Source: a virus (lineage: Duplodnaviria; Caudoviricetes). From it: a DNA stretch of 51,346 nt. The notes under the pieces were generated by a model. The model did no database searches and was not told where the DNA came from. It was given only the letters and a program-made list of their open reading frames with translations. A program made the translations under genes and the position numbers. Of this stretch, positions 1,648 to 47,108 are shown one piece after another; within the stretch, counting starts at the first letter, position 1, and each line of letters starts with the position of its first letter. The stretch spans positions 1 through 51,346 of IMG/VR virus record IMGVR_UViG_3300006428_000046, one strand, 5' to 3'.

Positions 1648-1793
1648 TGATATTTGTGTGGCTGTGTGGCCCGGAAAACTAAAAACCTTAGAAAACAGTA
1701 GATTAATCTCCAAAATAATGTTAAACTAAAAATTAAGTTAGTATGTCTATCAGTAGTGATAATCATGTGCTCAAGTCGAAAGGTGGATTAGCC

Positions 1794-2753: not shown

Positions 2754-2756
2754 GAT

Positions 2757-5204
2757 ATGAGCATGTACCGCAATATTTTTTTAAAAGACACTGCTGAATT
2801 AATTCCATATAGATCTGGAAAACGTGTGATTAATGCAGGTGAGCTTCCACAAAGAGATCGCCGCTCACATGGTGAATGGTTAATTAGGCAGTTTAATATT
2901 GCGCGTACGGAATCTAAATCATATACACCTTCAATGGTAGCAGCCATAAAAGCAAAGCAAGGGATGTATGTTGAATTTACAGGGAGAGAAGGCTTTGACC
3001 TTGTAACGAAGGGGCTTGAGAACATTCGATCCCATATAAGGTTGTTAAATGTCCGGTCAGAGGAGAATTCTGCAACTATTTACATCCCAGAGGGAAAAGA
3101 ATCATTAGTTATCAAAAAAATCTCGAGCTATGTTGAAGAAAATACGAAGAACGGTGATCCCAAAAATAACGCGCTAATCGCAAGCATTGAACAGATTAAG
3201 GCAGCAACAATTGAGGCATTTTGGATTGGAGACAAAACGGAGATACCCAAGGAAATTGCAGTATGGTGTGAAGTGTGGCTTCGAACCGAGGACAATAATG
3301 ACATTGCTGTAAGAAATGCCTTTTTTAGTCTGTGTGATGAGTTAAAAATAGAACACAAAAATGAATATATAGAATTTCCAGAACGAAATGTAGTTTTGGC
3401 AAAGGTAAACTATCAAAATCTTCAAGATATTATTGGCGTAAGTGATAGTCTTGCCGAGCTTCGAATAGCCCCTGAAAGTGCGACATCTTTTATAAATATG
3501 CCTCCGCAGGAAGATGGCGATTGGGTAGAAGATTTGAAAACCCGCCTGACTATACGGGATTCGAACAGCGCAGTTTGCATATTAGATACAGGAATTGCTT
3601 TCGCACACCCTTTGTTGGAGCAGTCCATATCTGAAACAGATGCACAAGCTGTCGTGCCGACATGGGGCGTTGCGGATCACGAGGGCCATGGAACAGGCAT
3701 GGCTGGCATCGCATTGTACAACGATTTGCAAAAAGCCTTAGAGTCTGCTAATAAGGTCTTGTTAACTCACTCCTTGGAATCCGTGAAGATTTTGCCGCCA
3801 AAAGGCGCGAATCAGGAAGAACTGTACGGCGCCATTACGCAACAAGGTACTTTGCTGGCGGAAATTGATCATCCTGGCCGTAATCGAGTCTTCTGCATGG
3901 CAATTACAGCAGACGATAAGGCCAAAGATGGTCGTCCCTCCTCTTGGTCGGGTGCTATTGACAGTTTAGCATCAGGCGCAGAGGATGGGACGCACAGGCT
4001 GATGCTTGTGTCTGCCGGAAATATTGAATCAAGCAATTTACAAAGCCTTGGATACCCCACGGCGAATACTCTTTTTTCTGTTGAAAATCCTGGACAAGCG
4101 TGGAATGCAATTACCATCGGAGCTTATGCAAATATTGTACAGACAAAGATCCCAAATTACCATGCAGTAGCCGATGTAGGAGATTTATCTCCACATAGCA
4201 CCACATCTCTTCTTTGGCAGTCCAAATGGCCAATTAAGCCGGATATTCTTTGCGCTGGTGGAAACATGGCAACGGATGGAACATTTTACACAGATTGCGA
4301 TGATCTTTCCTTACTTACTTTAAATCGTGATTTTGTTCATCATGCTTTCGAAACTTCTCGTGCAACGAGTGCAGCAACCGCTCAAGCTGCTTGGATGGCC
4401 GCAAAAATACAAGCGCAATACCCTGACTTGTGGCCTGAGACAATTCGAGCTCTGCTGATTCATTCCGCTCAGTGGACAGACAAAATGGTTACAATGTTCA
4501 ATCGCGATGGGAAGAAAACCACAGGATTAAGGCAGCTCTTTCGAATGTGTGGCTATGGGATTCCCAATCTTAAAAAAGCTTTGCATTGTGTTGATAATAG
4601 TGTCAATATGATCATTCAGGGTGAATTACAGCCATATCAAAAGCTCCCCGATAGATGTGCAATGAACGAAATGCATCTTCACTCTGTTCCTTGGCCGTGT
4701 GATTTACTTCAAGAACTCGGTGATACCCCTGTAACAATGCGAATTACCCTGTCCTATTTTATTGAACCAGGCCCTGGAGAAGTGGGCTGGAAGGATAAGT
4801 ATCGGTATCCATCTTGCGGCCTTCGCTTCGATGTAAATAAACCAGGTGAATTAAAGGGCGAGTTTATTCGGCGGGTTAACGTCGCAATGCGAGATGAAGA
4901 AGATGGCTCGGATTCAAGTAATGATGGTGGAAGCAATCGATGGATACTTGGCAAAGGGTTACGCGATGTTGGTTCTATTCATTCTGATTCTTGGACCGGT
5001 ACAGCAGCAGATCTATGTCAAAGCCACTACATTGCTGTTTATCCCACTATTGGGTGGTGGAGACAGCGTGCAAATCTAAAAATGTATAGCAAACATGTAC
5101 GCTATGCTTTAGTAGTATCTATATCTACACCATCGTCTGATATTGATCTTTACACACCTATAGTAACGCAGATTAAAATTCCGATTGAAATTTACAGTGA
5201 ATAA
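2757..5204 (+). CDS. S8 (subtilisin-like) serine protease, IetS-like
   Basis: Catalytic motifs LDTG, GHGTGMAG, SAGN and ATSAA; C-terminal GWW/RYALVVSI segment typical of ATPase-associated S8 proteases. Confidence 0.88.
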   Translation: MSMYRNIFLKDTAELIPYRSGKRVINAGELPQRDRRSHGEWLIRQFNIARTESKSYTPSMVAAIKAKQGMYVEFTGREGFDLVTKGLENIRSHIRLLNVRSEENSATIYIPEGKESLVIKKISSYVEENTKNGDPKNNALIASIEQIKAATIEAFWIGDKTEIPKEIAVWCEVWLRTEDNNDIAVRNAFFSLCDELKIEHKNEYIEFPERNVVLAKVNYQNLQDIIGVSDSLAELRIAPESATSFINMPPQEDGDWVEDLKTRLTIRDSNSAVCILDTGIAFAHPLLEQSISETDAQAVVPTWGVADHEGHGTGMAGIALYNDLQKALESANKVLLTHSLESVKILPPKGANQEELYGAITQQGTLLAEIDHPGRNRVFCMAITADDKAKDGRPSSWSGAIDSLASGAEDGTHRLMLVSAGNIESSNLQSLGYPTANTLFSVENPGQAWNAITIGAYANIVQTKIPNYHAVADVGDLSPHSTTSLLWQSKWPIKPDILCAGGNMATDGTFYTDCDDLSLLTLNRDFVHHAFETSRATSAATAQAAWMAAKIQAQYPDLWPETIRALLIHSAQWTDKMVTMFNRDGKKTTGLRQLFRMCGYGIPNLKKALHCVDNSVNMIIQGELQPYQKLPDRCAMNEMHLHSVPWPCDLLQELGDTPVTMRITLSYFIEPGPGEVGWKDKYRYPSCGLRFDVNKPGELKGEFIRRVNVAMRDEEDGSDSSNDGGSNRWILGKGLRDVGSIHSDSWTGTAADLCQSHYIAVYPTIGWWRQRANLKMYSKHVRYALVVSISTPSSDIDLYTPIVTQIKIPIEIYSE

Positions 5205-6707: not shown

Positions 6708-6724
6708 TGAAATACTCCTTCCTT

Positions 6725-6830
6725 GGTGAATTTAGTGACCCATTTCTTAAAATCACCATAAACTCTCTTATAGAACGCTCTCTATAGAGGACTTTATAGC
6801 AAAAAGCTAAAATGAGTCACTAAACTCACT
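6725..6830. repeat. 106-bp palindromic element, copy 1
   Basis: GGTGAATTTAGTGACCCATTT...AAATGAGTCACTAAACTCACT with an inner TATAG/CTATA pair; same length as and roughly three-quarters identical to 30945-31050. Confidence 0.85.
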
Positions 6831-6852
6831 AAAACCCCTAATTATAATTAGT

Positions 6853-7125
6853 TCAATCGCAGTCCACATTTGTATTAACTGCCGTGTCGTAGACAATGCC
6901 ACCCTTGGTGTTCTCGGCCTTGGACTTGGAATAGTACATTGCCTGAGATACGCCATACGCTGTCCATGCGCCGGTCAGTGTCACGGTCAACCATGGGAGA
7001 CTGCCGGTATAACCCTTCGTGACACAGAGGTAAGCGAGTCCTATGAAACTGATAGACAAAATCCAAATCAATATTGACTCCTGAACGAGAAGTGTTTTTG
7101 AAAAGGCTGTCTTTGCCGGTTTCAT
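6853..7125 (-). CDS. Two-TM membrane protein of the lysis region
   Basis: Two hydrophobic segments, KSKAEN motif; located in the lysis cassette. Confidence 0.7.
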   Translation of the reverse strand: MKPAKTAFSKTLLVQESILIWILSISFIGLAYLCVTKGYTGSLPWLTVTLTGAWTAYGVSQAMYYSKSKAENTKGGIVYDTAVNTNVDCD

Positions 7126-7670: not shown

Positions 7671-7982
7671 TTAAGCCGTGGTTAAACCATTGGCGATTAA
7701 GATAGACAATTCTGCCAAAGCGGTTTCCATTTGAAGCTGCTGCTCTTCCTGAGCCGCTTTCTGTTCTGCCTGATAAGCGGTTTCGCTGATCTCACCCAAG
7801 GCAACGGTTTCGGCACCGTCAATTTCAGGTTTTCCGGCAACGTGATATACTGTACCGTCTACCACAATACCGTGAGCTTCGTTCTCATTGCAGAGGGCAT
7901 AGCAGCCGTTGTTCTGTGTTTTCACCCAAGAAGGGGTAGTGACCACCGCTAAAACAGAATCATCTTTGAAAATCTTATACAT
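7671..7982 (-). CDS. Hypothetical protein (possible tail-fibre assembly-type)
   Basis: 103 aa ORF overlapping the RT stop; C-terminal ETALAEL helix. Confidence 0.65.
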   Translation of the reverse strand: MYKIFKDDSVLAVVTTPSWVKTQNNGCYALCNENEAHGIVVDGTVYHVAGKPEIDGAETVALGEISETAYQAEQKAAQEEQQLQMETALAELSILIANGLTTA

Positions 7983-9123
7983 GATTTTTCCAACCTTTCT
8001 TGTTCGGATAGAAACCGAACAGTGAATTGAAATATTGATTTGTACTTTCGATCACTCGGAAACTGTTTCCTCGTTTCATGTGACCTAAATAACTGTCGTA
8101 GGAACTGCGAATGTCCTGCATGGTGAAAGTTCCGTCCATATACCATTTGTGGAACTTCCGTAATTTCTTGCGAATGATAAGGGTAGAGTCAGGGTTCATT
8201 TTCAGTACGATCTTTCCGTTCGGGGTTACAATAAACTTGGTCTTCAACCAACGGTAGAAATCTTCCAAGGGAACAATCACCGTCTTTTTGCGATTCAGAG
8301 TCAGGCCAATTTTATTACAGATCAGCTCGATACAATCAAGGCACAAGTACAGGTAATCAATGTCTTCGTGAATGGCATAACCATCATCCATGTACCGCCC
8401 ATATCCTTTGATACGAAGAACTTCTTTGCAGTAGTGGTCAAGTGGACTCGGCAGCAGAAGCGCATTGGTCTGAGAAACCTGACTGCCAAGGCCAAGACCG
8501 ATTTCACCAAAATCTTGAATGAAACTGTCTGCAACCTTTCGTGTGCGTGGGTCATGCAGTCTTCGTATCGACTCTTGAAGCAAAGGCTCATGGGGTGCAG
8601 AATCGAAAAAGCTGTGAAAATCGTAAAGCAAAATACCACCGGTCAAACCATGCTTGCGATAATGTTTCTGCAAATGGCAGATCATACGCCGAATGGCAAA
8701 GTCCATGCCACGATGCTTCAAACTGGCTGAGTTATCATAAATGAACGATGCAGAGTAGATAGGAACAACACAGTAATCGCATAAGCATTTCTGAACAGCT
8801 CTTTCCGTGATGTGAACTGACCGGATATGCCGTTTCTTTCCTCGCTCCATGATGTCAAACTCATGAAACCCACGATGTACGAATTTGCCGTTTTGCAATG
8901 ATCGGTGAAGCTTTGCTGTGTTTGGGATGATGCTGTCAATATACCGCTGAGTCGAGTTTTTCCAGTAGACACCTGTGCAGCATTTCTTCCCTGCAAGATA
9001 TAAATGTCTGAACGAAAAGACTTCTTCAAAATCGCCATAGCTCATACTTCTCTTTTCACGAGCCACATCACGCTTGGCTTTTCTACGTTGGTACCGAGCT
9101 TCCTTTCGTTCTTCGCTTGTCAT
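7975..9123 (-). CDS. DGR reverse transcriptase
   Basis: RYMDD catalytic motif, LGSQVSQ (DGR-type SQ motif), DFHSFFDS; adjacent TR and Avd. Confidence 0.95.
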   Translation of the reverse strand: MTSEERKEARYQRRKAKRDVAREKRSMSYGDFEEVFSFRHLYLAGKKCCTGVYWKNSTQRYIDSIIPNTAKLHRSLQNGKFVHRGFHEFDIMERGKKRHIRSVHITERAVQKCLCDYCVVPIYSASFIYDNSASLKHRGMDFAIRRMICHLQKHYRKHGLTGGILLYDFHSFFDSAPHEPLLQESIRRLHDPRTRKVADSFIQDFGEIGLGLGSQVSQTNALLLPSPLDHYCKEVLRIKGYGRYMDDGYAIHEDIDYLYLCLDCIELICNKIGLTLNRKKTVIVPLEDFYRWLKTKFIVTPNGKIVLKMNPDSTLIIRKKLRKFHKWYMDGTFTMQDIRSSYDSYLGHMKRGNSFRVIESTNQYFNSLFGFYPNKKGWKNHV

Positions 9124-9345
9124 AATTTTATCCTCCGTACAGTCTTATTGTTGGGTACGGCTTCTAACTGCGTAGCAATTCCAGCCATGAAATGAGCTAC
9201 CGTACTGTCGCTCACCATGCAAGCAGCGTCCGGCTGATCGCATCGAAGGATTGTTTTAGCCTTTCGGCAGGGTACAAGTCCTCCTTCCGTAAGAGGTACT
9301 GATTTCACCCAAAGGGGTTACTACGACTGACCTATCGTTGTTACG

Positions 9346-9473
9346 GAATCCGAAGGAGACACCATTCGAGTTGCTGGCGTTGTTATTGTTAGCGTTGCCG
9401 TTGCTGTTGACATTACAGAAGTTGGTAGTGTTGCTGCCGTTCGGAGAACGCTCCCACCAGTTGTTCGCAGAGC
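9346..9473 (-). ncRNA. DGR template repeat (TR); 9124-9345 is the probable spacer of the DGR RNA
   Basis: AAC-rich on the coding strand (~37 adenines); aligns without gaps to 10016-10143 and 45440-45552 with mismatches only at TR adenines. Confidence 0.95.
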
Positions 9474-9503: not shown

Positions 9504-9953
9504 TTATTCCGAACGGTTGAAATAGTTCACCGGAAGGTCTTTGAACCGTTCATTGTCAGACTTTTTGATCTTGGAAATAAGCTGTGCTTCGTCTATGATG
9601 TATTCCCCGAAGACCTTCATTGCGTTGTCAATCCATGGGCAGTTTTCAGGATTTTGAAGAATTGCATCATAGAGCAAAGTCAGCTTGGGACTGAGATTTT
9701 GGAGAGCAATGTTAGCGTTGAGCAAGTGATCTCTCCGCATCTGAGCTTCGTGCTGATCTCTCGGAAAGATGTTGTTTGCTGCTCTGACTTCTTCATGAAC
9801 GGTAGAAGCCAACTCGAAAATCCGAGAGGTCAACAACGGCATATACCGTTTCGGAGCTTTGGTGCAAATCGAAAACACATGAATTTCTAACTTCCTTGCT
9901 GTTTCAACGAACTGCATGGAACTTTCTCCACGCATGGACTTGACAACGGACAT
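9504..9953 (-). CDS. avd: DGR accessory variability determinant (Avd-like four-helix bundle)
   Basis: 149 aa helical protein between the target gene and TR; canonical target-avd-TR-RT order. Confidence 0.8.
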   Translation of the reverse strand: MSVVKSMRGESSMQFVETARKLEIHVFSICTKAPKRYMPLLTSRIFELASTVHEEVRAANNIFPRDQHEAQMRRDHLLNANIALQNLSPKLTLLYDAILQNPENCPWIDNAMKVFGEYIIDEAQLISKIKKSDNERFKDLPVNYFNRSE

Positions 9954-9989: not shown

Positions 9990-10006
9990 ATTTATTTGAT
10001 ACAGGA

Positions 10007-11146
10007 TTAAACGCAGAAGCCGAAGGAGACACCAAACGAGTAGCTGGCGGAGTTACCGGAAGCGTCGCCGTTGCTGTTGACACCACAGAAGGAGGTAGGG
10101 TTGCTGCCGTACGGAGAACGCTCCCACCAGTAGTACGCAGAGCCATTTACCGTTTTGATCTTACTGTTTCCGGCCTTGTAGTAATCGTACTGTGTACCTT
10201 CACCGGCCTTGGAATAAGTAACGGCTCCGAAAACCTCAATCTCGGACAACAGGAACAGTTTATCAGCAGTCGTATTGATCGTTGAAGACTGAGAGCCAGC
10301 CGATGTGAGCTTGTTTACCTGTTTGATAGCACTCTGCAAGATGGACGGAAGCTGAGTCAGGAGTGTTGCCATCGTAGTTCCTCTCATGACGCTGCTTGTC
10401 CAACCTCCACTGTTAGTATCAGAACTGTTCATGGGATAGGTCGTAGCAAGGCAATTCTGCAACTGGAATGTGATACCGGCCTTGCCACCGGCAGTCTTGG
10501 TGTCATGGTCAAAACCGAGAATGACCGCCGTATAGGTGACGCTGTTTACAGTCAGAGTTTTGGTATCTCCGACATTCCACAGCATCGAAGCTAATCCTGC
10601 TTCGGACACGGACGCTACGACAGACCAACTCAAACTTTCGAGAGAAGCTAAAGCGGTATAGAAAACAGCGATAGCATCAATCGTGAATGTCTTTGTGACG
10701 GTAGAACCGCCAATCGTTGCACTCAGCGTCCAATTTCCAAAAGCTGCCGGATATAGAATCGCCCATCCATCAGAACCCGCCGTTGCGGTTAAGGTTTTTG
10801 TGCCAAAGGTTGCCGTTACAACAATGCCGCTTCCCGCCAGCACATGAAGCTCTGCCGGTTGAGTTTTCTGAGAAAGGGCATAAATCGCATTGTTTACCGT
10901 GGGGTCAGTCTGCGACAATTCCAAGGCCGTTTTCGTGGTATCGTCCAGAAGATTGTTTTTGTTCTGAGCGGTACCGATTACGTCACAGCCGATGTTGTCA
11001 CCGGTTGTCGCAGTATTCAGAGCAATGTCCAAATACGCTTCACCGGCAAGAAGCTGAGTGCGCCACGCATCGAACGTGGACGGCATATCACTCGGAGCCA
11101 TAATGACTCTTGACTTACCGTTTCCCTTGATTACTGTGTCTTTCAT
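10007..11146 (-). CDS. DGR target 1, putative tail-tip/receptor-binding protein with C-terminal DUF6273-like (CLec-fold) domain
   Basis: Last gene of the tail module; C-terminus encoded by VR1 (WWERSP...GVSFGFCV). Confidence 0.88.
   Translation of the reverse strand: MKDTVIKGNGKSRVIMAPSDMPSTFDAWRTQLLAGEAYLDIALNTATTGDNIGCDVIGTAQNKNNLLDDTTKTALELSQTDPTVNNAIYALSQKTQPAELHVLAGSGIVVTATFGTKTLTATAGSDGWAILYPAAFGNWTLSATIGGSTVTKTFTIDAIAVFYTALASLESLSWSVVASVSEAGLASMLWNVGDTKTLTVNSVTYTAVILGFDHDTKTAGGKAGITFQLQNCLATTYPMNSSDTNSGGWTSSVMRGTTMATLLTQLPSILQSAIKQVNKLTSAGSQSSTINTTADKLFLLSEIEVFGAVTYSKAGEGTQYDYYKAGNSKIKTVNGSAYYWWERSPYGSNPTSFCGVNSNGDASGNSASYSFGVSFGFCV
10016..10143 (-). repeat. Variable repeat VR1
   Basis: 19 mismatches to TR over 128 nt, all at TR adenines (hand alignment, offset 670). 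Confidence 0.95.
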
Positions 11147-14303: not shown

Positions 14304-17300
14304 TTAGTAGGCATTAGCAAAGGCACCGCTGTTCACTCTGGCACCTCTACTGGTATTGTACCGATCATAAGAACGTCCAACCACATCGTCACCAATGCTG
14401 AGAGACATATCCTTGCTCTCCACTACATTCAGCAATGCGTAAATGGCAGCAATCACGCCGTCATTGGCTACTGTAACGCCAGCGGAAATACCTTCAACAA
14501 TCTGGTCATTGTTGGCAACTGCGGCTCTTCTGCCAATTCCACCAACCATCTCGGCACCAGCTTCACGAGCGATAAAGAGCTGACCTTCATCTACAAAGCC
14601 GCCGTCTGCGAATGTAGGAATTGAGATGTGACCGATTACTTCAATCGCAGTTCCACCAAAAAAGGTGATGACTGAATTTACTTTTCCGATCACCCAATTG
14701 ATACCGTCAATGATACCGTTCACAAATCCGGTAAATACCCCGATTGCTCCATTCACGAAACCCTTCCATAATTTGCTGACAGCATCGAGCATAAGACCGA
14801 TTTTTTCAGCGAAGAAATCCCAATTCAGAGCCACGCCGGAAGCCAGACTTGCGGCACCGGCAACTAAAAGTCCGATACCAAGAGGAATACCCACGCCTGT
14901 ACAGATCAGGATAAGACCGAGAGCGATTAAGGCACCGCCAGCGGCAATACCGATGTTCTTCAAAACCTCCTTGACCTTGTTTAGTACCGAGTTCCAATTG
15001 AGAGCCGCCGAAGCCGCCAAGGACACAGCACCAGCCGCCATGAGTGCGATACCAAGAGGAAGGTTCACGCCGCTGAAAGTGAGCAAGGCACCAACCGCCA
15101 GCATTGCACCGCCGATGATAGCCGTTAACGTACTCAGGATTGCGGAAATTTTGTCAGTGGTGCTATCCCAATTGAGCATTGCGGAGGTGATTAGGCCAAC
15201 CGCACCAGCAACCAAGAAAGCGATACCCAAGGGAAGACTTACACCTGTGAATACGAACAATGCACCGAGAGCAAGTAACGCACCGCCGACCATTCCGCTA
15301 AGAGTTCCGAGAACTCTACTCATGGTGTCGTTGGTACTGTCCCAATTCAAAGCTGCTGCCGACATGATGGATACGGCACCGGCAACCAAAAAAGCGATAC
15401 CGAGAGGTACATTGACTCCGCTGAATACGAACAAACCACCCAAGGCCAGTAATGCACCGCCTACTATCCCTTCGAGGGTAGCAATTGCATCTCTAAAATG
15501 ATCGTCACTTGCGTGCCAGTTGACGGCTACCGCCGATACGAGGTTTGCAGCACCAATGACCATCAAGGCAATACCAAGAGGGACGTTAGCTCCACTGAAT
15601 GCCAGAACAGCACCGAGTCCTAAGAAGAAACCAGACAAGATACCTTCGATTGTTGCGAGGGTACTGGCGAGTTGTCCGCTCATGCCCTCCCAATTTGTTA
15701 CGGTAGCTGATACGATGGTAGCTGCTCCGAGAGCCATCATAGCAATGCCGAGAGGAATGTTGGCACCACTCAGAGCGAGAATTGCACCAACACCGAGCAT
15801 AAACCCACCGCATACCGTTTGAATTTCACCAAGGCTATCTTCGATCATCTTTTTGATTTCTGCGGTTTTTGTGGCAACTGCATCTCCGATGAAGTCATAC
15901 TCAGGAAGTTCAAAATCGAAACCACTTCCACCAGCACCGGCAGAGCTGCTACCACTGGAAGAGTCAGGCGAAAAAATGTTCAGTTCATCGAAGCCAGCCG
16001 TATACTGCTTTAATTTCTTGGCGGCACCGGCAGCATCTTCCAGTCCATCAGCAGTAGAACCGGCACTTGAACTGAGAGAATCAAGGCCAGAATAGTCAAT
16101 TTCGGTAAGAGTGAAACCGACCAGAGAGCCGAGAGCATTAGCAAGATCACGGATGACCTGAATTACCGCAATAGCATACGGCAGGATTGCGTTCAGCATG
16201 GGAATAAACACGTTGCCGATTGCACGAGCGCATTGCGTAAACTGAGCTTGCAGAATACGAAGCTGGTTGGCAGGAGACTCCAAGGTTCTCGCTAAATCTC
16301 CCTGAGCGGTTGTGACCTGATTCATGATTGCGTAATAACGAAGTTCAGCCTTTTCAGCCTGAGTCATAGAAGAAACACTTTTATCAATACCGAGTGATAG
16401 AGCGGTTGCTTCCAACCGTGCCTGTGACAAATCGTAACCGAGTCTACGAAGCGGCTCCAACTCACCAGAGATACCGGACTGTAATTTCTGCATTGCGTCT
16501 TCCACTGAAATGTTGAAGAAAGAAGACAGGTCATAGCCGAGTTGTGTCAGATTCTTGCTCATGAGTGCTGCTCGATCAGCGGTATCACCGAAGCCAGTTA
16601 ATAGAGTGTTGAAAACGCCTTGATTTCGGAGCCAGTCAGAAGGGTCAATGCCTAAGACTTCACTGACATTTTCTGCATATTTCTGAGCCTGTGCCGCATA
16701 TTCGCCCAAAGACACAGTAAACAGGTTCAAGTTCTCCTGATATTTATTGGACTCCGTGATTGCCGAAGCAATCAATGTAGAAACCCTTCTCAAACCGTAA
16801 AGGAAAGCGGAAAACTTGATACTTCCCATGAGAGAACCAAACTTGCTTGTAGTTGTGCTTGCCTTACCCAAGGATGAATTGTATTTATCTGTGCTGGTAA
16901 TAAGCTTCTGAATTTTAGAGGGAAAAGCGGAAAAGCCACTGGAAACTTTCTGCATTTCATCAGCAAACGGTTTCATTGCGGCAGCAAGTTTGGTCATTTG
17001 CTGAGTGAATTTGTCAATGTTGGCTTTTTCCAACTGCTCAATGACGGTAGGTAATTTCCCAAGCTGATTGATAAAGGTGGTAAGGTTTGCTTTGCCGAGT
17101 TCAGACAACGGCTGTAAACCTTGTGCCAAAGCCGAGATTTTATCACCGTCAGTCCATTTGATATTAGAAAGAGCGGTGCTGATTGCGGTAATCTGATTGG
17201 GAATGGAACTGGACAATTTGACAGAGCCAACCTGACTCAGTGTTTGCAAACCATGAGCCAAAGTGGAAATCTTCTGAACATTGTCGCTACTCAGACCGGA

Positions 17301-17480
17301 CAGAGCCGTATTCAGAGCTTTGATTTGATTTGCTGTAGTACGAATACCGGTTACACCACCGGCAGTTGCGGTTTTCAATCTTTCCAGAGTAGAAGCCAGC
17401 TTATCAAGACCGGCTACCGCCGTGGTGCTATCCCCCTGAATTTGAAATTCCAAACCCTGAATTTCCACATTATCAGCCAT
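14304..17480 (-). CDS. Tape measure protein
   Basis: 1058 aa, Ala/Gly-rich helical, periodic NxPLGIA...NW repeats; follows the tail chaperones. Confidence 0.92.
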   Translation of the reverse strand: MADNVEIQGLEFQIQGDSTTAVAGLDKLASTLERLKTATAGGVTGIRTTANQIKALNTALSGLSSDNVQKISTLAHGLQTLSQVGSVKLSSSIPNQITAISTALSNIKWTDGDKISALAQGLQPLSELGKANLTTFINQLGKLPTVIEQLEKANIDKFTQQMTKLAAAMKPFADEMQKVSSGFSAFPSKIQKLITSTDKYNSSLGKASTTTSKFGSLMGSIKFSAFLYGLRRVSTLIASAITESNKYQENLNLFTVSLGEYAAQAQKYAENVSEVLGIDPSDWLRNQGVFNTLLTGFGDTADRAALMSKNLTQLGYDLSSFFNISVEDAMQKLQSGISGELEPLRRLGYDLSQARLEATALSLGIDKSVSSMTQAEKAELRYYAIMNQVTTAQGDLARTLESPANQLRILQAQFTQCARAIGNVFIPMLNAILPYAIAVIQVIRDLANALGSLVGFTLTEIDYSGLDSLSSSAGSTADGLEDAAGAAKKLKQYTAGFDELNIFSPDSSSGSSSAGAGGSGFDFELPEYDFIGDAVATKTAEIKKMIEDSLGEIQTVCGGFMLGVGAILALSGANIPLGIAMMALGAATIVSATVTNWEGMSGQLASTLATIEGILSGFFLGLGAVLAFSGANVPLGIALMVIGAANLVSAVAVNWHASDDHFRDAIATLEGIVGGALLALGGLFVFSGVNVPLGIAFLVAGAVSIMSAAALNWDSTNDTMSRVLGTLSGMVGGALLALGALFVFTGVSLPLGIAFLVAGAVGLITSAMLNWDSTTDKISAILSTLTAIIGGAMLAVGALLTFSGVNLPLGIALMAAGAVSLAASAALNWNSVLNKVKEVLKNIGIAAGGALIALGLILICTGVGIPLGIGLLVAGAASLASGVALNWDFFAEKIGLMLDAVSKLWKGFVNGAIGVFTGFVNGIIDGINWVIGKVNSVITFFGGTAIEVIGHISIPTFADGGFVDEGQLFIAREAGAEMVGGIGRRAAVANNDQIVEGISAGVTVANDGVIAAIYALLNVVESKDMSLSIGDDVVGRSYDRYNTSRGARVNSGAFANAY

Positions 17481-27943: not shown

Positions 27944-28283
27944 ATAGTACACTAAAATTATTTAGTTGTCAATAGAGAATTAAATATATTTAGTGACTAA
28001 AGATTGTTAGTGAAGGGTCTTTTAGATTTTTGCGGATTTTTCAAAAGTCAGCTTTTTATATTTTGCGGTAATTTCGACACTCACCCCGACCTGCTGCCGC
28101 CGTCCATATCCCCCGCCACCCTCAATAGTAGATCAGGCCGGAACCGCCAGCCGCACAACGTCCACAAAAGCACACTTAAAAACACGCATTAAAACCGGCA
28201 ACAAAGCACTAAAAATATTTTGTGTTTATCCCTTGACAACTAAATATAATTAGTGTAAGGTAAAGACACTAAAAATAATTAGT
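27944..28283. promoter_or_regulatory. Divergent sigma-A promoters with six 16-bp operators ACTAAA-N4-(T/A)TTAGT
   Basis: Operators at 27951, 27979, 27996, 28208, 28239, 28268; leftward TTGACA (27972-27967)/TACTAT and rightward TTGACA (28233-28238), each with an operator filling the -35/-10 spacer. Confidence 0.8.
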
Positions 28284-30924: not shown

Positions 30925-30944
30925 ACTTTTTCTCCTTTCCGTTT

Positions 30945-31050
30945 AGTGAGTTTAGTGACCCATTTCTGAAAAATGCTATAAACTCTCCTTATAGTAACTC
31001 TCTATAGGGGACTTTATGGTAAAATCAATAAATGATTCACTAAACTCACT
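30945..31050. repeat. 106-bp palindromic element, copy 2
   Basis: AGTGAGTTTAGTGACCCATTT...AAATGATTCACTAAACTCACT; direct repeat of 6725-6830. Confidence 0.85.
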
Positions 31051-31056
31051 GAAAAC

Positions 31057-31101
31057 GCTAAATATTTTTAGTTTTAGCCTAAAAGACTAAATATTTTTAG
31101 C
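31057..31101. promoter_or_regulatory. Two further 16-bp operator-like sites upstream of terS
   Basis: GCTAAATATTTTTAGT (31057-31072) and ACTAAATATTTTTAGC (31086-31101). Confidence 0.6.
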
Positions 31102-41444: not shown

Positions 41445-43343
41445 TTATACCTCCAATAAATTTAATAATTTTTTCTTGATGATGTTGACTCTTCTGGTGT
41501 TCCGCTTGGGAGCTTTAATGCCGAGAAAATCTCGAACGTACCGTTGCGCCAAACGGATATACCAGTCACGGTCAATTACATCAATGCTCAGGTGATTGTC
41601 GTTATCAACCACGCATTTTGTAGGAAGTCCGGCAATCTTTACCGGATTGCCGGTGCCAAGATGAATTTTGTAGAGAGTGCCGTAGTGGTAGTCTCCGGTA
41701 GCATAAACACGGTTGACCTTTTGAACAACGGTCATTTCTTCGTTGACTTCGTGTAGTGCATCTCCGTATTTGCTGCCAGCTTTGGCGATCAATTGGAAAT
41801 CCAGCATTCTGTCACACTCTTCGATGGTCTGTTCTACAGGAACACCGAAAGCCAGATAATCCTTGACCGCTCGTGCCACTACCACGGCATTGTTGTTGAT
41901 ATTGAACGCACCGCCGTTTTGATTCTCCCAAGGAGGGAAACCCATTACTTCAAAATCGACATTACTGTTGGTTACTGCTCCCCGAACAAGAACAACGCCT
42001 TTGATCTTCGGTTTTCCATCGAAGGGCAATTCCACATAATTGTTTACATCTTTCTGGCAGATCATCTTGATAAGGTCTTCTTCCAGTTCAAATCCGGTTC
42101 GGTCTTGCCACTCCTGAGTGATCTCCTGCCACTTTGGTTCGTCAGAGTCATCCAAACTGACCATGATACCATCGGTGTTAAGCTGGATGATTTTCAAGGT
42201 GGGGCATTCTCTGACAAGATGTTCTGCCATTTCGAGAAGCTGTAATTGGCCTGAGATACACACTGAGCGACCCATGAGAGGGTCAAACAGGTCGTTGTAC
42301 TGGTTTAGCATTGCGCCGTAGGTGGTGTTCAGAACCAGTTTCAAAGCGTTAGCTGTTTCTTTATCGCCGGACTTCTTCGCCTTGACTCTCCGTTCAATGG
42401 TTGCTTCGTACACTTCGGGAGAGGGAATGTTCCGACTACAGTAGCCATTTAAGGTCATCTGGTGCGGATAATAGCTTGCAACGTCCTTGTTGCGGATTGA
42501 TCGAGTCTCTGTGGCTTCCTCTCGGTAACAGGGAATTGCACCGTGAATACCACCGTAAGCGATCGTACAGGGACAACCGCCAACTGTAATATTCAGTTTC
42601 TCAGAGAAAACCTCTTTATTGGGAATTGAAGAGTCATGCACTCGATCAAAGAAGTCAAACACTTCTTGCGGGATATACTCACGGAGCAATTTCGGAGGGT
42701 ATTGATATTCACGCTCGTCCTGCCATTCGACTTCCCGCTTTGCATCGAGATAGGCTGCGGTCAGTTTGGCGTTGGTCATGTAGAGAGCCTTGGAAGAGTA
42801 AATATCTTTCTCCTTGCCCAATGTGAGTTTGTTGCTTAAATAGCCTTGTCGTAGATCGTCCAGCTTGTCAGTAGCGTCAACATCGTGTTTGCAGTAGAAA
42901 ACAACTTCTTCCAGCTCTGCATCATTCAAAGCGTGGTCAACATCAAAGCTGATTGTTGTTTCACGAATGTCCATGCCAAGGTGAGCTTCGATTGCTTTCA
43001 GGGACAAACCCATTTGGCAATCGTCCATAAGGTCGTACTGATCGAAATAGACCTTACATTCTCTCAGTTCTCCATGCTCCCATCCTTCATGCCCTTCCAC
43101 GATAATGTAATCGTTGACGGCCTTTATTTGCTCAGGAGTGAAATCACAAAGAACCGCTTTCAAAATGAACTGGTCATAATGCTTGTTATTAAACCCTCCC
43201 AAAAGAGGGTCAGCGTTCATGAATTGCTTGACTGCATCGTTGTCATTGTGAATGACTGTGTACTCTTTGGTCTGCTTGTCCTTGAAGACGAAAAGCCAAT
43301 CGTGAGCAAAAACTTCGCAGTCAAAGATGTAGAGGTTATTCAG
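41445..43343 (-). CDS. DNA polymerase, family B-like, with proofreading exonuclease
   Basis: FDCE, N...YD, YC..D exonuclease motifs; DVASYYP, K..LN..YG, NTDG polymerase motifs; start uncertain (CTG 43343 or TTG 43373). Confidence 0.88.
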   Translation of the reverse strand: MNNLYIFDCEVFAHDWLFVFKDKQTKEYTVIHNDNDAVKQFMNADPLLGGFNNKHYDQFILKAVLCDFTPEQIKAVNDYIIVEGHEGWEHGELRECKVYFDQYDLMDDCQMGLSLKAIEAHLGMDIRETTISFDVDHALNDAELEEVVFYCKHDVDATDKLDDLRQGYLSNKLTLGKEKDIYSSKALYMTNAKLTAAYLDAKREVEWQDEREYQYPPKLLREYIPQEVFDFFDRVHDSSIPNKEVFSEKLNITVGGCPCTIAYGGIHGAIPCYREEATETRSIRNKDVASYYPHQMTLNGYCSRNIPSPEVYEATIERRVKAKKSGDKETANALKLVLNTTYGAMLNQYNDLFDPLMGRSVCISGQLQLLEMAEHLVRECPTLKIIQLNTDGIMVSLDDSDEPKWQEITQEWQDRTGFELEEDLIKMICQKDVNNYVELPFDGKPKIKGVVLVRGAVTNSNVDFEVMGFPPWENQNGGAFNINNNAVVVARAVKDYLAFGVPVEQTIEECDRMLDFQLIAKAGSKYGDALHEVNEEMTVVQKVNRVYATGDYHYGTLYKIHLGTGNPVKIAGLPTKCVVDNDNHLSIDVIDRDWYIRLAQRYVRDFLGIKAPKRNTRRVNIIKKKLLNLLEV

Positions 43344-43354
43344 AGTGGCACCTC

Positions 43355-44743
43355 CTATTCGATGAATCGGCAACCAGCCTTACGATAGGTGGTACACCGC
43401 TTTTTGTAGCTGCGAACGAGATATTGAACTCTTTCGTCCACATAGTCATAGGCAATCGGGTCAGCCTTGCCATCAGCAACACGAGCAATGCGCCCGATAC
43501 TCTGAGTGACAACGGCATAATCCTTTTGCGGGGTGGTCAGATACAGACGGTCAAGGCAGGGAATGTCAAGACCTTCTTTTGCCAGAGAGTAGGTTGCGAA
43601 TAGGTACCGTTTTTTTCCTGTCCGCATATCCTCAATGGCCTGTTCACGCAAAACCTTCGCTTTCTTGGAAGTCATCTTTCCGTCAATCATTGCCGCTTGC
43701 AATCTCAGGTCATAGGGTAAATGCTTCATGAGATATTCCAAGTGACTCAGGCGATCAGACAAGATCAGGTTGGAATGTTCTTTATTGAGAATCAAATCCT
43801 TTATAATCAGGCTGCTTCGACTGACATCTTCGGTCAGGTAATTTATCAGTTTTGCGTAGACAATCGTTCCGTCTGTGTCTAAGAAATCTCGGCTTAACCC
43901 AACATGGGTAGGAACCGGCATAATGCTTACGGTCATGATCTTCTCGGCAACCGCTTCGTCTGGCACCTCATAGGCGATCTCTCCCAACATTGCGTAGGTG
44001 GCGGCAATCATACCGTCTGCCCGATGCACCGTTGCAGATAAACCGTATTTGTGCCGAGCTGCGAGAGAATTTAGCACTTTTGAGAATTGCGTAACTGAGG
44101 TTGGTGTACCGGCTACACGGTGACATTCATCAACGATGATGCAATCCCAAACATTACGGTACAGATCGAGATTCAGGTTACACATCGTTTGTACAGTGGC
44201 AAAGGTGATTGCCTTTCCGATCTTCACTCGTCCCTCAGTAACCGTTCCGGTCAGTGAAGGACTCATATACTGCTCTGCACGGCTTTTGCTCTGTAATAGC
44301 AAGTCTCGTGTGTGAGTCAGCCAAAGAGTCTTTCTACCAATCTCACAGGCCAGAGCGATACCGATTTGAGTCTTTCCGCTGCCAGCCGGACTCTGTAGAA
44401 TACCGTAATACTTTGCCAGCATTTCGGCCTTTGCAATGTCCTGATAGTCATACAGCGGAACGGTACAGCCGAAATCAACCTCTGTAGGGTCTGGTAAATC
44501 AGAGATCACTTCGGGGTCATTCCCCAAGCTAAGGACGGTGTTCAGACAACCATAAGGGAGAACGAGAATGTCACCGTCCCATTGCATCAGGAAGATTTTT
44601 TGAGGGGTGTTTCCAAGCCATAGGTGCATACGAGCCTTTTTGGTATAATCGGGGTTAGTGAGAATCAGGTTGTCGTGGCACCATTTCAGCAATTCGTCAG
44701 ACGGTTCCTCAATTCGCAATTGACTTCCGACTGTCACTCGCAT
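43355..44743 (-). CDS. SF2 (DExH) helicase
   Basis: PAGSGKT, DECH, SAT, EGLD.P, QSIGR..R. Confidence 0.92.
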   Translation of the reverse strand: MRVTVGSQLRIEEPSDELLKWCHDNLILTNPDYTKKARMHLWLGNTPQKIFLMQWDGDILVLPYGCLNTVLSLGNDPEVISDLPDPTEVDFGCTVPLYDYQDIAKAEMLAKYYGILQSPAGSGKTQIGIALACEIGRKTLWLTHTRDLLLQSKSRAEQYMSPSLTGTVTEGRVKIGKAITFATVQTMCNLNLDLYRNVWDCIIVDECHRVAGTPTSVTQFSKVLNSLAARHKYGLSATVHRADGMIAATYAMLGEIAYEVPDEAVAEKIMTVSIMPVPTHVGLSRDFLDTDGTIVYAKLINYLTEDVSRSSLIIKDLILNKEHSNLILSDRLSHLEYLMKHLPYDLRLQAAMIDGKMTSKKAKVLREQAIEDMRTGKKRYLFATYSLAKEGLDIPCLDRLYLTTPQKDYAVVTQSIGRIARVADGKADPIAYDYVDERVQYLVRSYKKRCTTYRKAGCRFIE

Positions 44744-45141
44744 TGGCGCACCCACTCTCCGAGAGGTATGCCGACAGCCTTGATCTCTGATTCAGACAGA
44801 ACCGTTTTCAAATAACTCAGGTCTTCCAGTTTTGAGAAGCTTACAAAGAAAACTGCTCCGTTGTTCATTTTCAGAGCAAACCAACCCTCTCCGTTTCCAG
44901 TCTCACGCCAAAGGGTCAACGCCGAAGCCTGATTTTCCTCAACACGTTCCATTTTGAAAATGTTCTTCTCACACACCTTGCAGTCAATCGGATGGACTTT
45001 ACCGTTACGAGCGGCAATCACATCAAAGGGTTGGCCTTGACTGTTTTGTGCGAGATTGTGCGCCCAAAAGCCATAACCGGATAGGCTAACACATAGCTGC
45101 TTTTCAAAACCAGTACCGATCTTGCGATTATCGTTTGTCAT
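44734..45141 (-). CDS. PD-(D/E)xK nuclease, Holliday junction resolvase-like
   Basis: G..FE, PFD.IA, IDCK, NQ motifs. Confidence 0.78.
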   Translation of the reverse strand: MTNDNRKIGTGFEKQLCVSLSGYGFWAHNLAQNSQGQPFDVIAARNGKVHPIDCKVCEKNIFKMERVEENQASALTLWRETGNGEGWFALKMNNGAVFFVSFSKLEDLSYLKTVLSESEIKAVGIPLGEWVRQCE

Positions 45142-45376
45142 CGAAATCACTCTCCAATTCTGCAATTTTGTTATTCAGAGAGCGAACGGCACCTTTCAGA
45201 TCAGATACAAACTGCTCACGCTCATTTTCTTTTTTGGCCTGTTCTTCACCCATCTCACGGAAATATCGAACCGCATCAAACCCCATGTACTTGTCAATCA
45301 GATACTCGAAGTCCTGAACAGTAAACAGGGTTTCGTTTTTGCCGTCTTTCAGGGTAATAACACAAGGGTATTGCAT
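45128..45376 (-). CDS. Hypothetical protein
   Basis: RBS AAGGAGG; coiled-coil C-terminus. Confidence 0.65.
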   Translation of the reverse strand: MQYPCVITLKDGKNETLFTVQDFEYLIDKYMGFDAVRYFREMGEEQAKKENEREQFVSDLKGAVRSLNNKIAELESDFDDKR

Positions 45377-45393
45377 AGGTTCCTCCTTCCTTG

Positions 45394-45411
45394 CCGCTCC
45401 TTACGGAGCGG
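45394..45411 (-). promoter_or_regulatory. DGR target-recognition hairpin downstream of VR2
   Basis: CCGCTCC-TTAC-GGAGCGG, 19 nt past the target-2 stop codon. Confidence 0.72.
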
Positions 45412-45430
45412 GATTTTTTGAGATTTTGGA

Positions 45431-46240
45431 TTAAACGCAGAAGCCGAAGGAGACACCACCCGAGTAGCTGGCGTTGCGAATGCTAGCGGCGCCGCTGCTG
45501 TGGACACCACAGAAGTAGGTAGCGTAGCTGCCGCTCGGAGAACGCTCCCACCGCCAATCAGACTCACCGTTCTGCTTGCACTTTCCGTAGTCAACATTCT
45601 CCTGCTTGTAGTAGTCATACCAATGACCTTCACCACCGATGGAATAAATCTTTCTACCGAAGATTTCCTGCTCGGACAGAAGAAACAGCTTGTCCACGGT
45701 GTTTCCCGTCTTGGGAGATTTACCGCCAGTACCGGTCAGCTTCGCACAAGGTTTAATGACGGCTTTCAGGTCATCCGGCAGCATATTGTTGAAGAAGTGA
45801 TCGTTCAGAGAAGAACGGAGTTTAGACGCAGACCAGCCGCCTTTATTCGTATATTCATCATTCATCTGAGCATCTTCGTTCAGCGTCTCTACCGACTCAA
45901 AGGTGATGGGGATAATCTGTCCGTTGTCGTTCTGATCGTGATTGAAACCGATGATACGAACATTGATGGAAGAGCCATCTGCCAGCGTGATTTCCTTGGT
46001 GTCACCGAGAGCAAACACACGGTCAGCCATACCGGACTGAGCATACATATTGATCTCGTTCCAAGAACAATCAGCCAGTTTCAGCTTCGGATAACTGTCG
46101 AGGGGAGCGTTGACCATCATGGGGCAACCACAGGGAACCATGGGCTGCTTCGGCAGAGCCGAAATGATCTTCTGCTGAAAAGCGATAATGCTTTCCATTT
46201 TTTCAAATTCAGCACAAAGCTGAGAAATAGTAGTGTTCAT
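45431..46240 (-). CDS. DGR target 2: stand-alone DUF6273-like (CLec-fold) protein in the early operon
   Basis: Paralog of the target-1 C-domain (GDTK, IIGFNHD, GGW..S, DKLFLLSE.E.FG, WERSP, GVSFGFCV); C-terminus is VR2. Confidence 0.9.
   Translation of the reverse strand: MNTTISQLCAEFEKMESIIAFQQKIISALPKQPMVPCGCPMMVNAPLDSYPKLKLADCSWNEINMYAQSGMADRVFALGDTKEITLADGSSINVRIIGFNHDQNDNGQIIPITFESVETLNEDAQMNDEYTNKGGWSASKLRSSLNDHFFNNMLPDDLKAVIKPCAKLTGTGGKSPKTGNTVDKLFLLSEQEIFGRKIYSIGGEGHWYDYYKQENVDYGKCKQNGESDWRWERSPSGSYATYFCGVHSSGAASIRNASYSGGVSFGFCV
45440..45552 (-). repeat. Variable repeat VR2
   Basis: 18 mismatches to TR over 113 nt, all at TR adenines; 31-nt 3' block identical to VR1 (45428.. vs 10004..). 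Confidence 0.93.
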
Positions 46241-46280
46241 GTGAAAATCTCCTTTTCAATTTTCAAAATATCTGATATAC

Positions 46281-46517
46281 TCAGATTGAGCTTTTACGCT
46301 TGCCGCCTTTCGGTCTGCTACACCGAGGGCGGTTTTCTTTTTCTGTGCTGTAGTCAAAGCCACCGGCAAGCCAAGTGAACAACCCAAAACCTACAAGTCC
46401 AAAAATCATTCGGACGGTTCCTATTCCGAGAGCCAGTGTGTTTTGCTCGATTGCACCAACAGTACCAAGCAAGAAAAAGAAAGATAAAAATGCTAATGTA
46501 CCAAACACTTTTTTCAC
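46281..46517 (-). CDS. Small two-TM membrane protein
   Basis: GTGA overlap start, two hydrophobic helices, basic tail. Confidence 0.6.
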   Translation of the reverse strand: MKKVFGTLAFLSFFFLLGTVGAIEQNTLALGIGTVRMIFGLVGFGLFTWLAGGFDYSTEKENRPRCSRPKGGKRKSSI

Positions 46518-46681
46518 GCTGTCACCTTCTGCCATGTGTATTTCTTGCCGTAGCGTTTTTCGTACCAGTCCTCAAACTCTTTTCTGTGCTGCTCGTCCTT
46601 AAAATAGGTACGAACCTTCTGAGCGAGTAACAGACTTAATGCCCTTGCCTGAGTCTGTTTTTCCGGTACGATAACGCTCAT
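46514..46681 (-). CDS. 55-aa hypothetical protein, not in the ORF track
   Basis: MSVIVPEKQ...YFKDEQHRKEFEDWYEKRYGK; overlaps both neighbours by 4 nt. Confidence 0.65.
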   Translation of the reverse strand: MSVIVPEKQTQARALSLLLAQKVRTYFKDEQHRKEFEDWYEKRYGKKYTWQKVTA

Positions 46682-46908
46682 GAACTTTCATATCCGCTTT
46701 CCTTGCTGACCTTCTCGTACCAGTCGAGGATATTGCAAGACTCACTTACAATTTCATCAACCTTTGCACCATTACGAGTACCGGCAAGAATAGCACTCAT
46801 GGTGGAGCGGTCAGTATCTACACCTCTTTTGCGAAGCATTCCGATTAACCAAGTAGAGGTTAGGTTGTTGACCCTCAGCCGAAAGCGGATATTTTCACGT
46901 TCATTCAC
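46678..46908 (-). CDS. Cro-like HTH regulator
   Basis: WL...L..RG...DRS.MS..L.G.R; first gene divergent from the repressor. Confidence 0.75.
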   Translation of the reverse strand: MNERENIRFRLRVNNLTSTWLIGMLRKRGVDTDRSTMSAILAGTRNGAKVDEIVSESCNILDWYEKVSKESGYESS

Positions 46909-46949
46909 CGTTTTTCCTCCCTTCTTCCATTATTTATGAACAATTTTTG

Positions 46950-46978
46950 TTGACAGCTAAGTGTTCTAATGCTATACT
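46950..46978 (+). promoter_or_regulatory. Rightward (lysogenic) promoter
   Basis: TTGACA-17-TATACT with extended -10 TG. Confidence 0.75.
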
Positions 46979-47079
46979 TTGGGTGTCAAGCAAAAATAAG
47001 CATTGGAGACTCAAACCATCGAAAGTTCCAGCTTTCGGGGGTCGGCTTTTTGTTGTCAAAATTTCTTGTTCACAATGAG

Positions 47080-47108
47080 AGTATATCTCGATTTCTCGTG
47101 ATTGTCAA
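47080..47108 (-). promoter_or_regulatory. Leftward (lytic) promoter
   Basis: TTGACA (47108-47103), 17 nt, TATACT (47085-47080) on the minus strand. Confidence 0.72.

Follow-up and report, generated by a model that had tools for sequence, protein, structure and literature searches.

What is known about the function of phage DGRs concerns almost exclusively the tail proteins that bind receptors. The gut-type provirus analysed here (an IMG/VR record of 51,346 nt, taken at its full length and called the window below) carries a DGR whose first target adjoins tail genes, and, some tens of kilobases away, a small gene with what looks like a second variable repeat at its end. This second gene lies between a Cro-like regulator and the genes for a resolvase, a helicase and a DNA polymerase. 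Two questions follow: is the distant repeat a true target of the DGR, and what would a hypervariable protein do in such a place?

One DGR and two variable repeats

The cassette, its first target and the elements of the second target are located as follows.

7975..9123, minus strand: DGR reverse transcriptase (RT); PF00078; phrog_1423, E 1.9e-67
9346..9473, minus strand: template repeat (TR)
9504..9953, minus strand: Avd-like accessory protein; phrog_3206 'Avd protein of DGR', E 6.8e-6
10007..11146, minus strand: target 1, 379 aa, DUF6273, with VR1 at 10016-10143; adjoins tail genes
10016-10143, minus strand: VR1, within the target 1 gene
45394..45411, minus strand: GC-rich hairpin with a perfect 7-bp stem and a GTAA loop
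45428..45458, minus strand: IMH-like 3' block of 31 nt
45431..46240, minus strand: target 2 gene, 269 aa; N-terminal helix, linker and DUF6273 domain ending in VR2
45440..45552, minus strand: variable repeat VR2, 113 nt; ends the target 2 gene

A repeat family with three copies is found in the window, at 9321-9458, 9991-10128 and 45415-45552. The DGR reads target 1, Avd, TR, RT on the minus strand, and its TR is flanked by the cognate RT and accessory protein, the arrangement expected of a DGR. When VR2 (45440-45552) and the TR (9346-9458) are compared without gaps on the minus strand, they show 18 mismatches, and 18/18 fall at TR adenines. Given that the 113 nt of the TR contain 33 A, this bias has a hypergeometric P of about 3e-12, and the statement of the preliminary description that VR2 departs from the TR at adenines alone therefore holds. 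Similarly, 19/19 differences between VR1 and the TR, across 128 nt, are at TR adenines. Upstream of 45552, on the VR2 side, similarity to the TR is lost and non-A differences appear.

The 31-nt block at the 3' end (45428-45458), which spans the stop codon plus 3 nt, has the same sequence in both VRs, and the TR departs from it after TTCGG; we call this block IMH-like. The hairpin begins 19 nt past the stop codon of target 2. Both the shared block and the separate hairpin had been pointed out before, and both were recovered here. As judged from these elements, VR2 appears to have what a DGR target should have, namely a 3' element whose VR and TR versions differ, followed downstream by a hairpin. 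The two VRs have diverged in what they encode: 11 of the 14 codons changed in either VR specify different amino acids in VR1 and VR2, in line with the earlier remark that most variable codons differ. With one RT, one Avd and one TR in the window, and with adenine-only differences in both VRs, the results support the proposal that a single DGR serves two targets.

The description of VR2 as remote, about 35 kb from the TR, needs qualification. On the integrated prophage map the distance is indeed 36 kb, but in the circular relative G003 the TR lies about 7.9 kb from VR2, with lysis, integrase and immunity genes between them.

The target 2 gene in its operon, in related loci and in populations

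The genes around target 2, and the site that may drive them, are listed here.

47080..47108, minus strand: promoter-like site TTGACA-17-TATACT; 11/12 consensus match; points into the Cro operon
46678..46908, minus strand: Cro-like regulator, operon gene 1; phrog_1468 'transcriptional repressor', E 8.8e-5
46514..46681, minus strand: conserved 55-aa ORF (orf55), operon gene 2; kept in 81/83 loci
46281..46535, minus strand: 84-aa predicted two-span membrane protein (TM84), directly 5' of target 2; hydropathy maximum 2.01
41445..45376, minus strand: 82-aa ORF, Hjc-type resolvase, helicase and DNA polymerase, downstream of target 2

Target 2 is the fourth gene of a Cro-led array on one strand, in which the ends of the genes from Cro to the polymerase overlap or abut; Erf and exonuclease genes follow the DNA polymerase, and the opposite strand encodes a CI-like repressor and a serine integrase. 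Open reading frames and family matches thus agree with the original assignment of target 2 as the fourth gene of a Cro-led operon, ahead of the resolvase, helicase and polymerase. The 55-, 84- and 82-aa neighbours have no family in Pfam, PHROGs or PADLOC, and TM84 ends in a conserved basic C-terminal tail. Scans of the operon for promoters and terminators, both of them consensus matches only, gave the promoter-like site listed above and found no strong minus-strand terminator between Cro and the polymerase. Since target 2 sits inside this packed array with no predicted sense-strand terminator, and since helicase and polymerase transcripts from the Cro promoter must cross it, the protein is most likely made early, along with the replication proteins.

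The comparison with relatives covered the best 80 of 131 in IMG/VR plus three species genomes (Oscillospiraceae, Dysosmobacter), giving 83 loci. The order Cro-orf55-TM84-target on one strand is kept in 81/83, the two exceptions being records with no upstream DNA. Downstream of the target, Hjc is found in 79 of the loci, the helicase in 78 and the polymerase in 74, with the misses at contig ends. The survey of related prophages proposed in the preliminary description returns the same placement in these 81 loci. In two proteins, P0087 and P0109, a DUF6273-type domain is fused to an Hjc domain, in agreement with the order of target 2 and Hjc as neighbouring genes. Against 50,697 phage records, a blastn search with positions 44700-47000 gave two short fragments only.

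The hairpin is conserved as well: a perfect stem of 6 bp or more, closed by a 4-nt loop, stands 18-20 nt past the stop codon in 79 of the 80 loci that could be examined, as compared with 65 of 1600 shuffled tails, and two versions of its stem, CCGCCCC and CCGCTCC, differ by paired changes. The target 2 ORF is intact in 80/83 loci. Outside the VR, 32 alignment columns show no change at all and many others reach at least 90% conservation, among proteins 43-90% identical.

If VR2 is rewritten repeatedly, it should follow the TR of its own genome, and a relic would not show such tracking. In the 23 relatives with a usable TR and VR2, 383 of the 395 mismatches (9 to 23 in each record) fall on TR adenines. 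The non-A mismatches of VR2 average 0.52 to the cognate TR versus 7.76 to non-cognate TRs, in a control that leaves out the window's own VR because of its 3 extra nucleotides. In 22/23 relatives no other TR fits VR2 better than the cognate one, and all 23 VR2 sequences are distinct versus 15 distinct TRs. The exception, G015, has a VR2 that fits the TR of another lineage better, which suggests recombination. Five records were omitted from the tally. In three of them (G018, G013 and G010) the VR2 or TR stretch is truncated or matches merely in short pieces. In G023 the repeat at the TR position has 21 A only and 6 mismatches to VR2, 5 of them at A. In G025 the one long match to VR2 has 20 mismatches, 14 at A, and is probably VR1 and not a TR.

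An RT was present in 28 of the 40 records searched, and in 19 of the 25 virus records at least 90% complete. Most of the records that lack it are contigs that stop at the DGR; the real losses counted are G028, with no RT, and G025, with a 52-aa RT remnant, and both keep both targets. Target 2 is therefore a core gene, whereas the DGR itself can be lost.

Variation was also followed among near-identical proteins. At E <= 1e-10, target 2 matches 1345 of the 5.8 billion proteins searched, and the best 120 of them are mostly 260-280 aa long. Six clusters at 90% identity have 2 to 7308 members; several clusters (7308, 2565, 1967 and 1856 members) are very large for the contig count of their representative. 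Alleles were read from 12-15 full-length members of each of the four large clusters. Here variation touches 16-20 of the 26 VR columns; the average VR column has 3.9-4.4 different residues, compared with 1.04-1.15 for columns outside the VR. The two members of the window's own cluster differ at 15/26 VR columns and at 11/235 other columns. Diversification among near-identical proteins is concentrated in the VR, as it should be in a DGR target, and the invariance of VR2 across populations and relatives that would have spoken against a live target is not found: VR2 is hypervariable within clusters and distinct in every one of the 23 relatives. Among the sequencing runs listed for the locus none was of RNA, and all were contigs that share at most 0.24 of the sampled words. 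In four sequencing runs, contigs of relatives about 90-99% identical end or begin at the 31-mer of VR1 and VR2; we rejected these breaks as a signal of variation, as they are an effect of the repeat, and contigs cannot show variation within a sample.

These data also bear on the idea that target 2 is a passive by-product, with VR2 either a duplicated domain that stores VR alleles for recombination with VR1, an alternative raised in the preliminary description as a reservoir of alleles, or a decaying relic hit accidentally. The paralogy of the target 1 and target 2 domains fits such an origin, as do the persistence of both targets in G028 and G025 after the loss of the RT and the VR2 of G015, which points to recombination. 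An ORF kept intact in nearly all loci and the many conserved columns outside the VR make a mere store of alleles unlikely, and the N-terminal helix of the protein, described below, is conserved and specific to the lineage. With target 2 a core gene and the DGR losable, we consider the passive reading highly improbable. We conclude that the single DGR of this prophage has a true second target in VR2 and that this target is still being maintained.

A helix, a linker and a DUF6273 domain

The Pfam family PF19789 (DUF6273) matches residues 122-264 of target 2 (E 1.3e-16, 61.4 bits versus a gathering cut-off of 23.5). The alignment with target 1 is confined to residues 54-269, at 43% identity, and the N-terminal 165 aa of target 1 have no counterpart in target 2, as expected from the earlier claim that target 2 has no virion-attachment region. 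A model made with AlphaFold2 on an alignment of 66 sequences has a mean pLDDT of 74, with values above 90 over much of residues 51-170. In it, a helix (residues 3-28) is followed by a low-confidence linker (29-52) and a confident globular domain; the VR residues 232-269 are below a pLDDT of 50, as is expected of hypervariable columns. No signal peptide, lipobox or membrane segment was found in target 2, whose top Kyte-Doolittle mean over 19 residues is 0.98. The modelled helix and the low hydropathy agree with the earlier picture of a short N-terminal helix plus a variable domain and no signal peptide.

The helix is encoded by a conserved segment.

46157..46234, minus strand: coding region of the conserved N-terminal amphipathic helix; heptad core I5 L8 F12 M15 I19 Q22 I26 L29

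The heptad register is occupied at 8/8 positions, and L8, E11, F12, M15 and E16 are invariant across 20 diverse relatives, with the other heptad positions nearly so. This 26-residue helix probably forms a coiled coil, through which the protein would associate with itself or with a partner. When a profile of the N-terminal 60 residues was compared with 1.84 billion representatives, 40 sequences matched; almost all are N-terminal fragments of the same family, and among these 40 no other architecture carries the helix.

Structural comparison added little. No PDB match was found by Foldseek at E <= 0.001, and a profile of target 2 against PDB sequences gave nothing under E 0.68. With VIA-align the sole domain-level match is 9qa6_A, an IgA peptidase of Thomasclavelia ramosa, in its N-terminal part (Z 7.9, rmsd 3.0, 141 residues aligned); the remaining rows cover the N-terminal helix alone, at Z 3.6 and below. 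The look-alikes in BFVD are other viral DUF6273 proteins, one of which is named tail-collar fiber. A PADLOC search for defence proteins returned no match for target 2. The likeness of DUF6273 to C-type lectins is taken from Baykov 2023 (PMC10743442) and from Egorov and Atkinson 2024 (bioRxiv 10.1101/2024.10.15.618418), as their accounts give it.

The domain shared with target 1 makes an accessory virion adhesin worth weighing, and this is the chief rival of the in-cell reading given in the next section. A protein made early could join or decorate the particle via its N-terminal coiled-coil helix, which we regard as somewhat unlikely, and could there serve as a second, independently diversified head binding receptors or glycans, like Mtd on the fibres of BPP-1, for which our expectation is equally low. 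The 43% identity to target 1 over residues 54-269 supports this, as does the BFVD look-alike named tail-collar fiber, and the conserved a/d heptad positions would suit docking. For its part, Baykov 2023 (PMC10743442) supposes Mtd-like receptor binding for small DUF6273 targets, as does Egorov 2024, so two published groups prefer a receptor-binding role. Several observations point away from the virion, however. The target 2 gene is never in the structural module: it stands in the early array in 81/83 loci, and the Toutatis record likewise has its small DUF6273 gene, gp24, between regulators and replication genes. The N-terminal region of target 1 has no counterpart in target 2, and the helix profile, by finding the target 2 family only, argues that the helix is not a virion adaptor shared with other proteins.

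Target 2 could also be a lectin acting at the cell surface or after release. It would be placed at the envelope, possibly with TM84, or freed at lysis, and would mask receptors or bind debris or glycans; this we think decidedly unlikely. Its effect would be superinfection exclusion or protection of the progeny, an outcome we hold to be just as doubtful. Llp of phage T5 offers a comparison for a role in receptor masking and exclusion or in progeny protection. The strict co-occurrence of target 2 with the two-span TM84 directly upstream, in 81/83 loci, agrees with a place at the envelope, and the conserved acidic motif EFEKME of the helix may face the conserved basic tail of TM84. So does the lectin fold attributed to the domain in the papers cited above, and, according to a 2026 preprint, the bacterial secretome contains a different DGR target of a prophage. 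Against a surface or released lectin stand the lack of a signal peptide, lipobox or membrane segment in target 2, and the 11/14 changed codons at which VR1 and VR2 differ, by which the specificities of the two targets are uncoupled. A free product would moreover be a shared good, under weaker selection on single alleles.

Comparable published systems and a possible role in the infected cell

The BPP-1 DGR (Mtd, Avd, TR, Brt) works by adenine-specific transfer into a VR at the C-terminus of a lectin fold; its 3' element is not the same in the TR as in the VR, beyond which stands a GC-rich hairpin whose loop is 4 nt long. Its Mtd is a single target beside the cassette and attaches to the fibre via N-terminal beta domains. 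The system described here shares with BPP-1 the adenine-specific transfer from TR to VR, the C-terminal VR, the differing 3' element and the GC-rich hairpin with a 4-nt loop; the VR here may also lie on a lectin-fold domain, going by the likeness given in the cited papers. Unlike Mtd, target 2 is remote, is one of two targets and has no N-terminal beta domains: in the AlphaFold2 model one helix and a linker precede the domain, in place of the beta-prism and beta-sandwich of the Mtd type.

By analogy with BPP-1, TR RNA would be copied by an RT/Avd complex into adenine-mutagenised cDNA, which would replace VR2 in trans, guided by the 3' block shared with VR1 and by the downstream hairpin. The product would be a free-standing binder composed of a heptad helix, a flexible linker and a DUF6273 lectin-fold domain with a rewritten tip, and, to judge from the position of its gene, it would be made early alongside the replication proteins. 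It may then act in or at the infected cell on a variable host factor, such as a defence protein or an envelope component.

Layouts of this kind are already in print. Gut phage DGRs with two DUF6273 targets are described in Baykov 2023 (PMC10743442), the second target being a single lectin-like domain with short helices, and an Mtd-like receptor binder is supposed there for the second targets nd4_tgt2 and nd12_tgt2. Gulyaeva 2024 (PMC11792537) reports a large and a small DUF6273 target in the Faecalibacterium phages Lelie and CP11; CP11 varies at both VRs, and the function of the small target is called 'not entirely clear'. In Toutatisvirus, according to Egorov and Atkinson 2024 (bioRxiv 10.1101/2024.10.15.618418), the gene that carries the second VR belongs to the core (98.8% of phages) and persists without the DGR, and its product is suggested to bind receptors. 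Target 2 resembles Toutatis gp24, the small target of Lelie and CP11, and nd4_tgt2 and nd12_tgt2 in its arrangement, with one TR serving a large target near the tail genes and a small remote one. As in these, the VR is at the C-terminus of both targets, the small protein is a single globular domain with short helices, and the gene is core and kept where the DGR is lost.

The resemblance is one of architecture, and target 2, a lone domain away from the cassette, has it. A relationship in sequence was not detected: by tblastn, target 2 matched 12 of 50,697 phage records at E <= 1e-5, including Taranis, Roos and Pioen at 29-31% identity, and Toutatis is absent from these matches. The small remote DUF6273 class is thus defined by architecture and not by orthology. 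The hosts here are Oscillospiraceae/Dysosmobacter and the phage lineage is separate from that of the Faecalibacterium phages Toutatis, Lelie and CP11. The conserved heptad helix belongs to target 2 as compared with the Toutatis class, and so does the fixed fourth-gene place in the Cro operon, which is not stated in the published passages on that class that we consulted.

A comparable arrangement is reported for other phages. In the account of Benler 2021 (PMC8008677), Quimbyviridae DGRs target genes nested among defence-related genes, and the second target of Quimbyvirus is read as non-structural and tied to the conflict between phage and host. A Nature 2025 study (PMC12629997) describes four gut prophage species in which a second VR lies at a distance, close to counter-defence genes, and again proposes a non-structural, conflict-related second target. 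These systems likewise have their second VR away from the structural module; they differ from ours in being Bacteroidota phages, with targets among methyltransferase and nuclease genes and not between Cro and replication genes. A survey, Roux 2021 (PMC8144416), was by its own account unable to detect remote DGR targets. The opinion in the preliminary description that functions of remote early targets are not established was out of date as a description, since such targets have been in print from Benler 2021 onward, and it stands in that their function is still called unknown in the published texts we drew on. Among the titles and abstracts listed on DGR and anti-defence from 2022 onward, none reports a tested function for a remote DGR target. 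The layout therefore is already in print, and target 2 is a well-documented addition to the remote, small, early-region DGR targets. The added anatomy (a heptad helix, a conserved hairpin and a VR2 that tracks its own TR) brings no new principle.

Concerning the role of the protein, the absence of an export signal, together with that of a counterpart to the anchoring half of target 1, argues for a soluble binder. Selection can sort single alleles most effectively when a product affects the very cell in which the genome encoding it resides, which favours a binder engaged in conflict inside the cell. We give an even chance to the reading in which target 2 is an early-expressed, non-virion binder, made of a coiled-coil helix and a lectin-fold domain, that acts in the infected cell; its expression timing, its place outside the virion and its ligand are predictions.

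Several side observations touch on this in-cell binder. Toutatis, an independent lineage, also keeps its small target gene between regulators and replication genes, which is in its favour, as are the similar interpretations published for Quimbyvirus and for four gut prophages. Three points count against it: docking onto a virion fibre would suit the conserved heptad helix just as well, a receptor-binding role is preferred by two published groups, and the nearest viral structural look-alikes include the protein named tail-collar fiber. Lectin-fold proteins diversified by DGRs have their known ligands outside the cell, which also counts against a site of action within it.

A narrower form of the in-cell binder, in which target 2 is a programmable intracellular counter-immunity factor and the DGR makes libraries of a cytoplasmic lectin-fold binder, we consider unlikely. 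If true, some genomes in each burst would carry an allele that neutralises the defence or restriction protein of the next host strain, and the system would be a phage-side mirror of bacterial DGR-diversified sensors. The lineage is a good test case, with a core gene in a rigid place, thousands of natural alleles and cultured hosts with related prophages. More generally, a small hypervariable early-region protein recurs in unrelated temperate phages (the Oscillospiraceae lineage, Toutatisvirus and Quimbyvirus), and this recurrence suggests that targeted hypermutation serves a second step of infection.

Structural likeness of the target 2 domain, and its upstream neighbour

The globular domain in the structural model of target 2, the DUF6273 protein that ends in VR2 (45431-46240), resembles PDB entry 9qa6_A, with a Z score of 7.9 and an rmsd of 3.0 over 141 aligned residues at 16% identity. 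The matched region covers residues 32-267, the N-terminal portion of the IgA peptidase from Thomasclavelia ramosa, and the modelled likeness suggests that a DUF6273-like domain is present in this secreted protease of a gut Firmicute. Upstream of target 2 lies a small gene:

46281-46535, minus strand: predicted 84-aa membrane protein with two spans

Its product ends at the C-terminus in a basic tail, RPRCSRPKGGKRKSS, which is nearly identical in the protein of a relative (locus L006, 5691-5960), the rest of that protein being only 59% identical.

Relatives with unusual template, VR2 or reverse transcriptase

VR2 of the related record G015 (loci L028 and L096) shows six non-adenine mismatches to its own template repeat (TR) and is a closer fit to the TR type found in another sub-lineage; it looks like a recombinant. 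The repeat at the TR position in G023 (L040 and L093) holds only 21 adenines and is nearly identical to VR2, with six mismatches; from its sequence it looks like a degenerate template. Both DUF6273 targets are kept in two complete records, G028 (L052), which is without the DGR reverse transcriptase (RT), and G025 (L044), where the RT is reduced to a 52-aa remnant.

Putative transcription signals, and repeats

Two promoter-like sites lie between the CI-like and Cro-like genes:

46950-46978, plus strand: promoter-like site, 11/12 consensus match
47108-47080, minus strand: promoter-like site, 11/12 consensus match

The sites point toward each other, so that divergent transcripts started from them would have roughly 150 nt in overlap. 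In the plus-strand reading, which is antisense to the operon, a run of T comes after the VR2 hairpin (45394-45411), and a consensus scan scores the hairpin as a terminator-like site.

Elsewhere, a 174-nt unit occurs in six tandem head-to-tail copies of 60-70% identity (14852-15788, minus strand) within a tail-module ORF (14304-17480, 1058 aa); they probably encode a repetitive stretch within a protein of the tape-measure kind. Two intergenic stretches spaced 24,220 nt apart (6723-6853 and 30943-31073) have repeats of 45 and 76 nt in common, at 80-84% identity, and an AT-rich 41-nt motif is found three times, at 27953, 28213 and 31060. These intergenic repeats and the motif may represent common regulatory sites.

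Recombinase and defence genes at the left end

The left end of the window carries a further recombinase:

1-1647, plus strand: second large serine recombinase

An IetA/IetS pair lies 3' of it, all within 1-5204 on the plus strand. IetA is an AAA ATPase (PADLOC E-value 4.7e-68) and IetS an S8 subtilase (1.2e-37), and by sequence the two are a known defence gene pair. The pair adjoins the prophage lysis genes, and is either carried as cargo or part of a neighbouring island.
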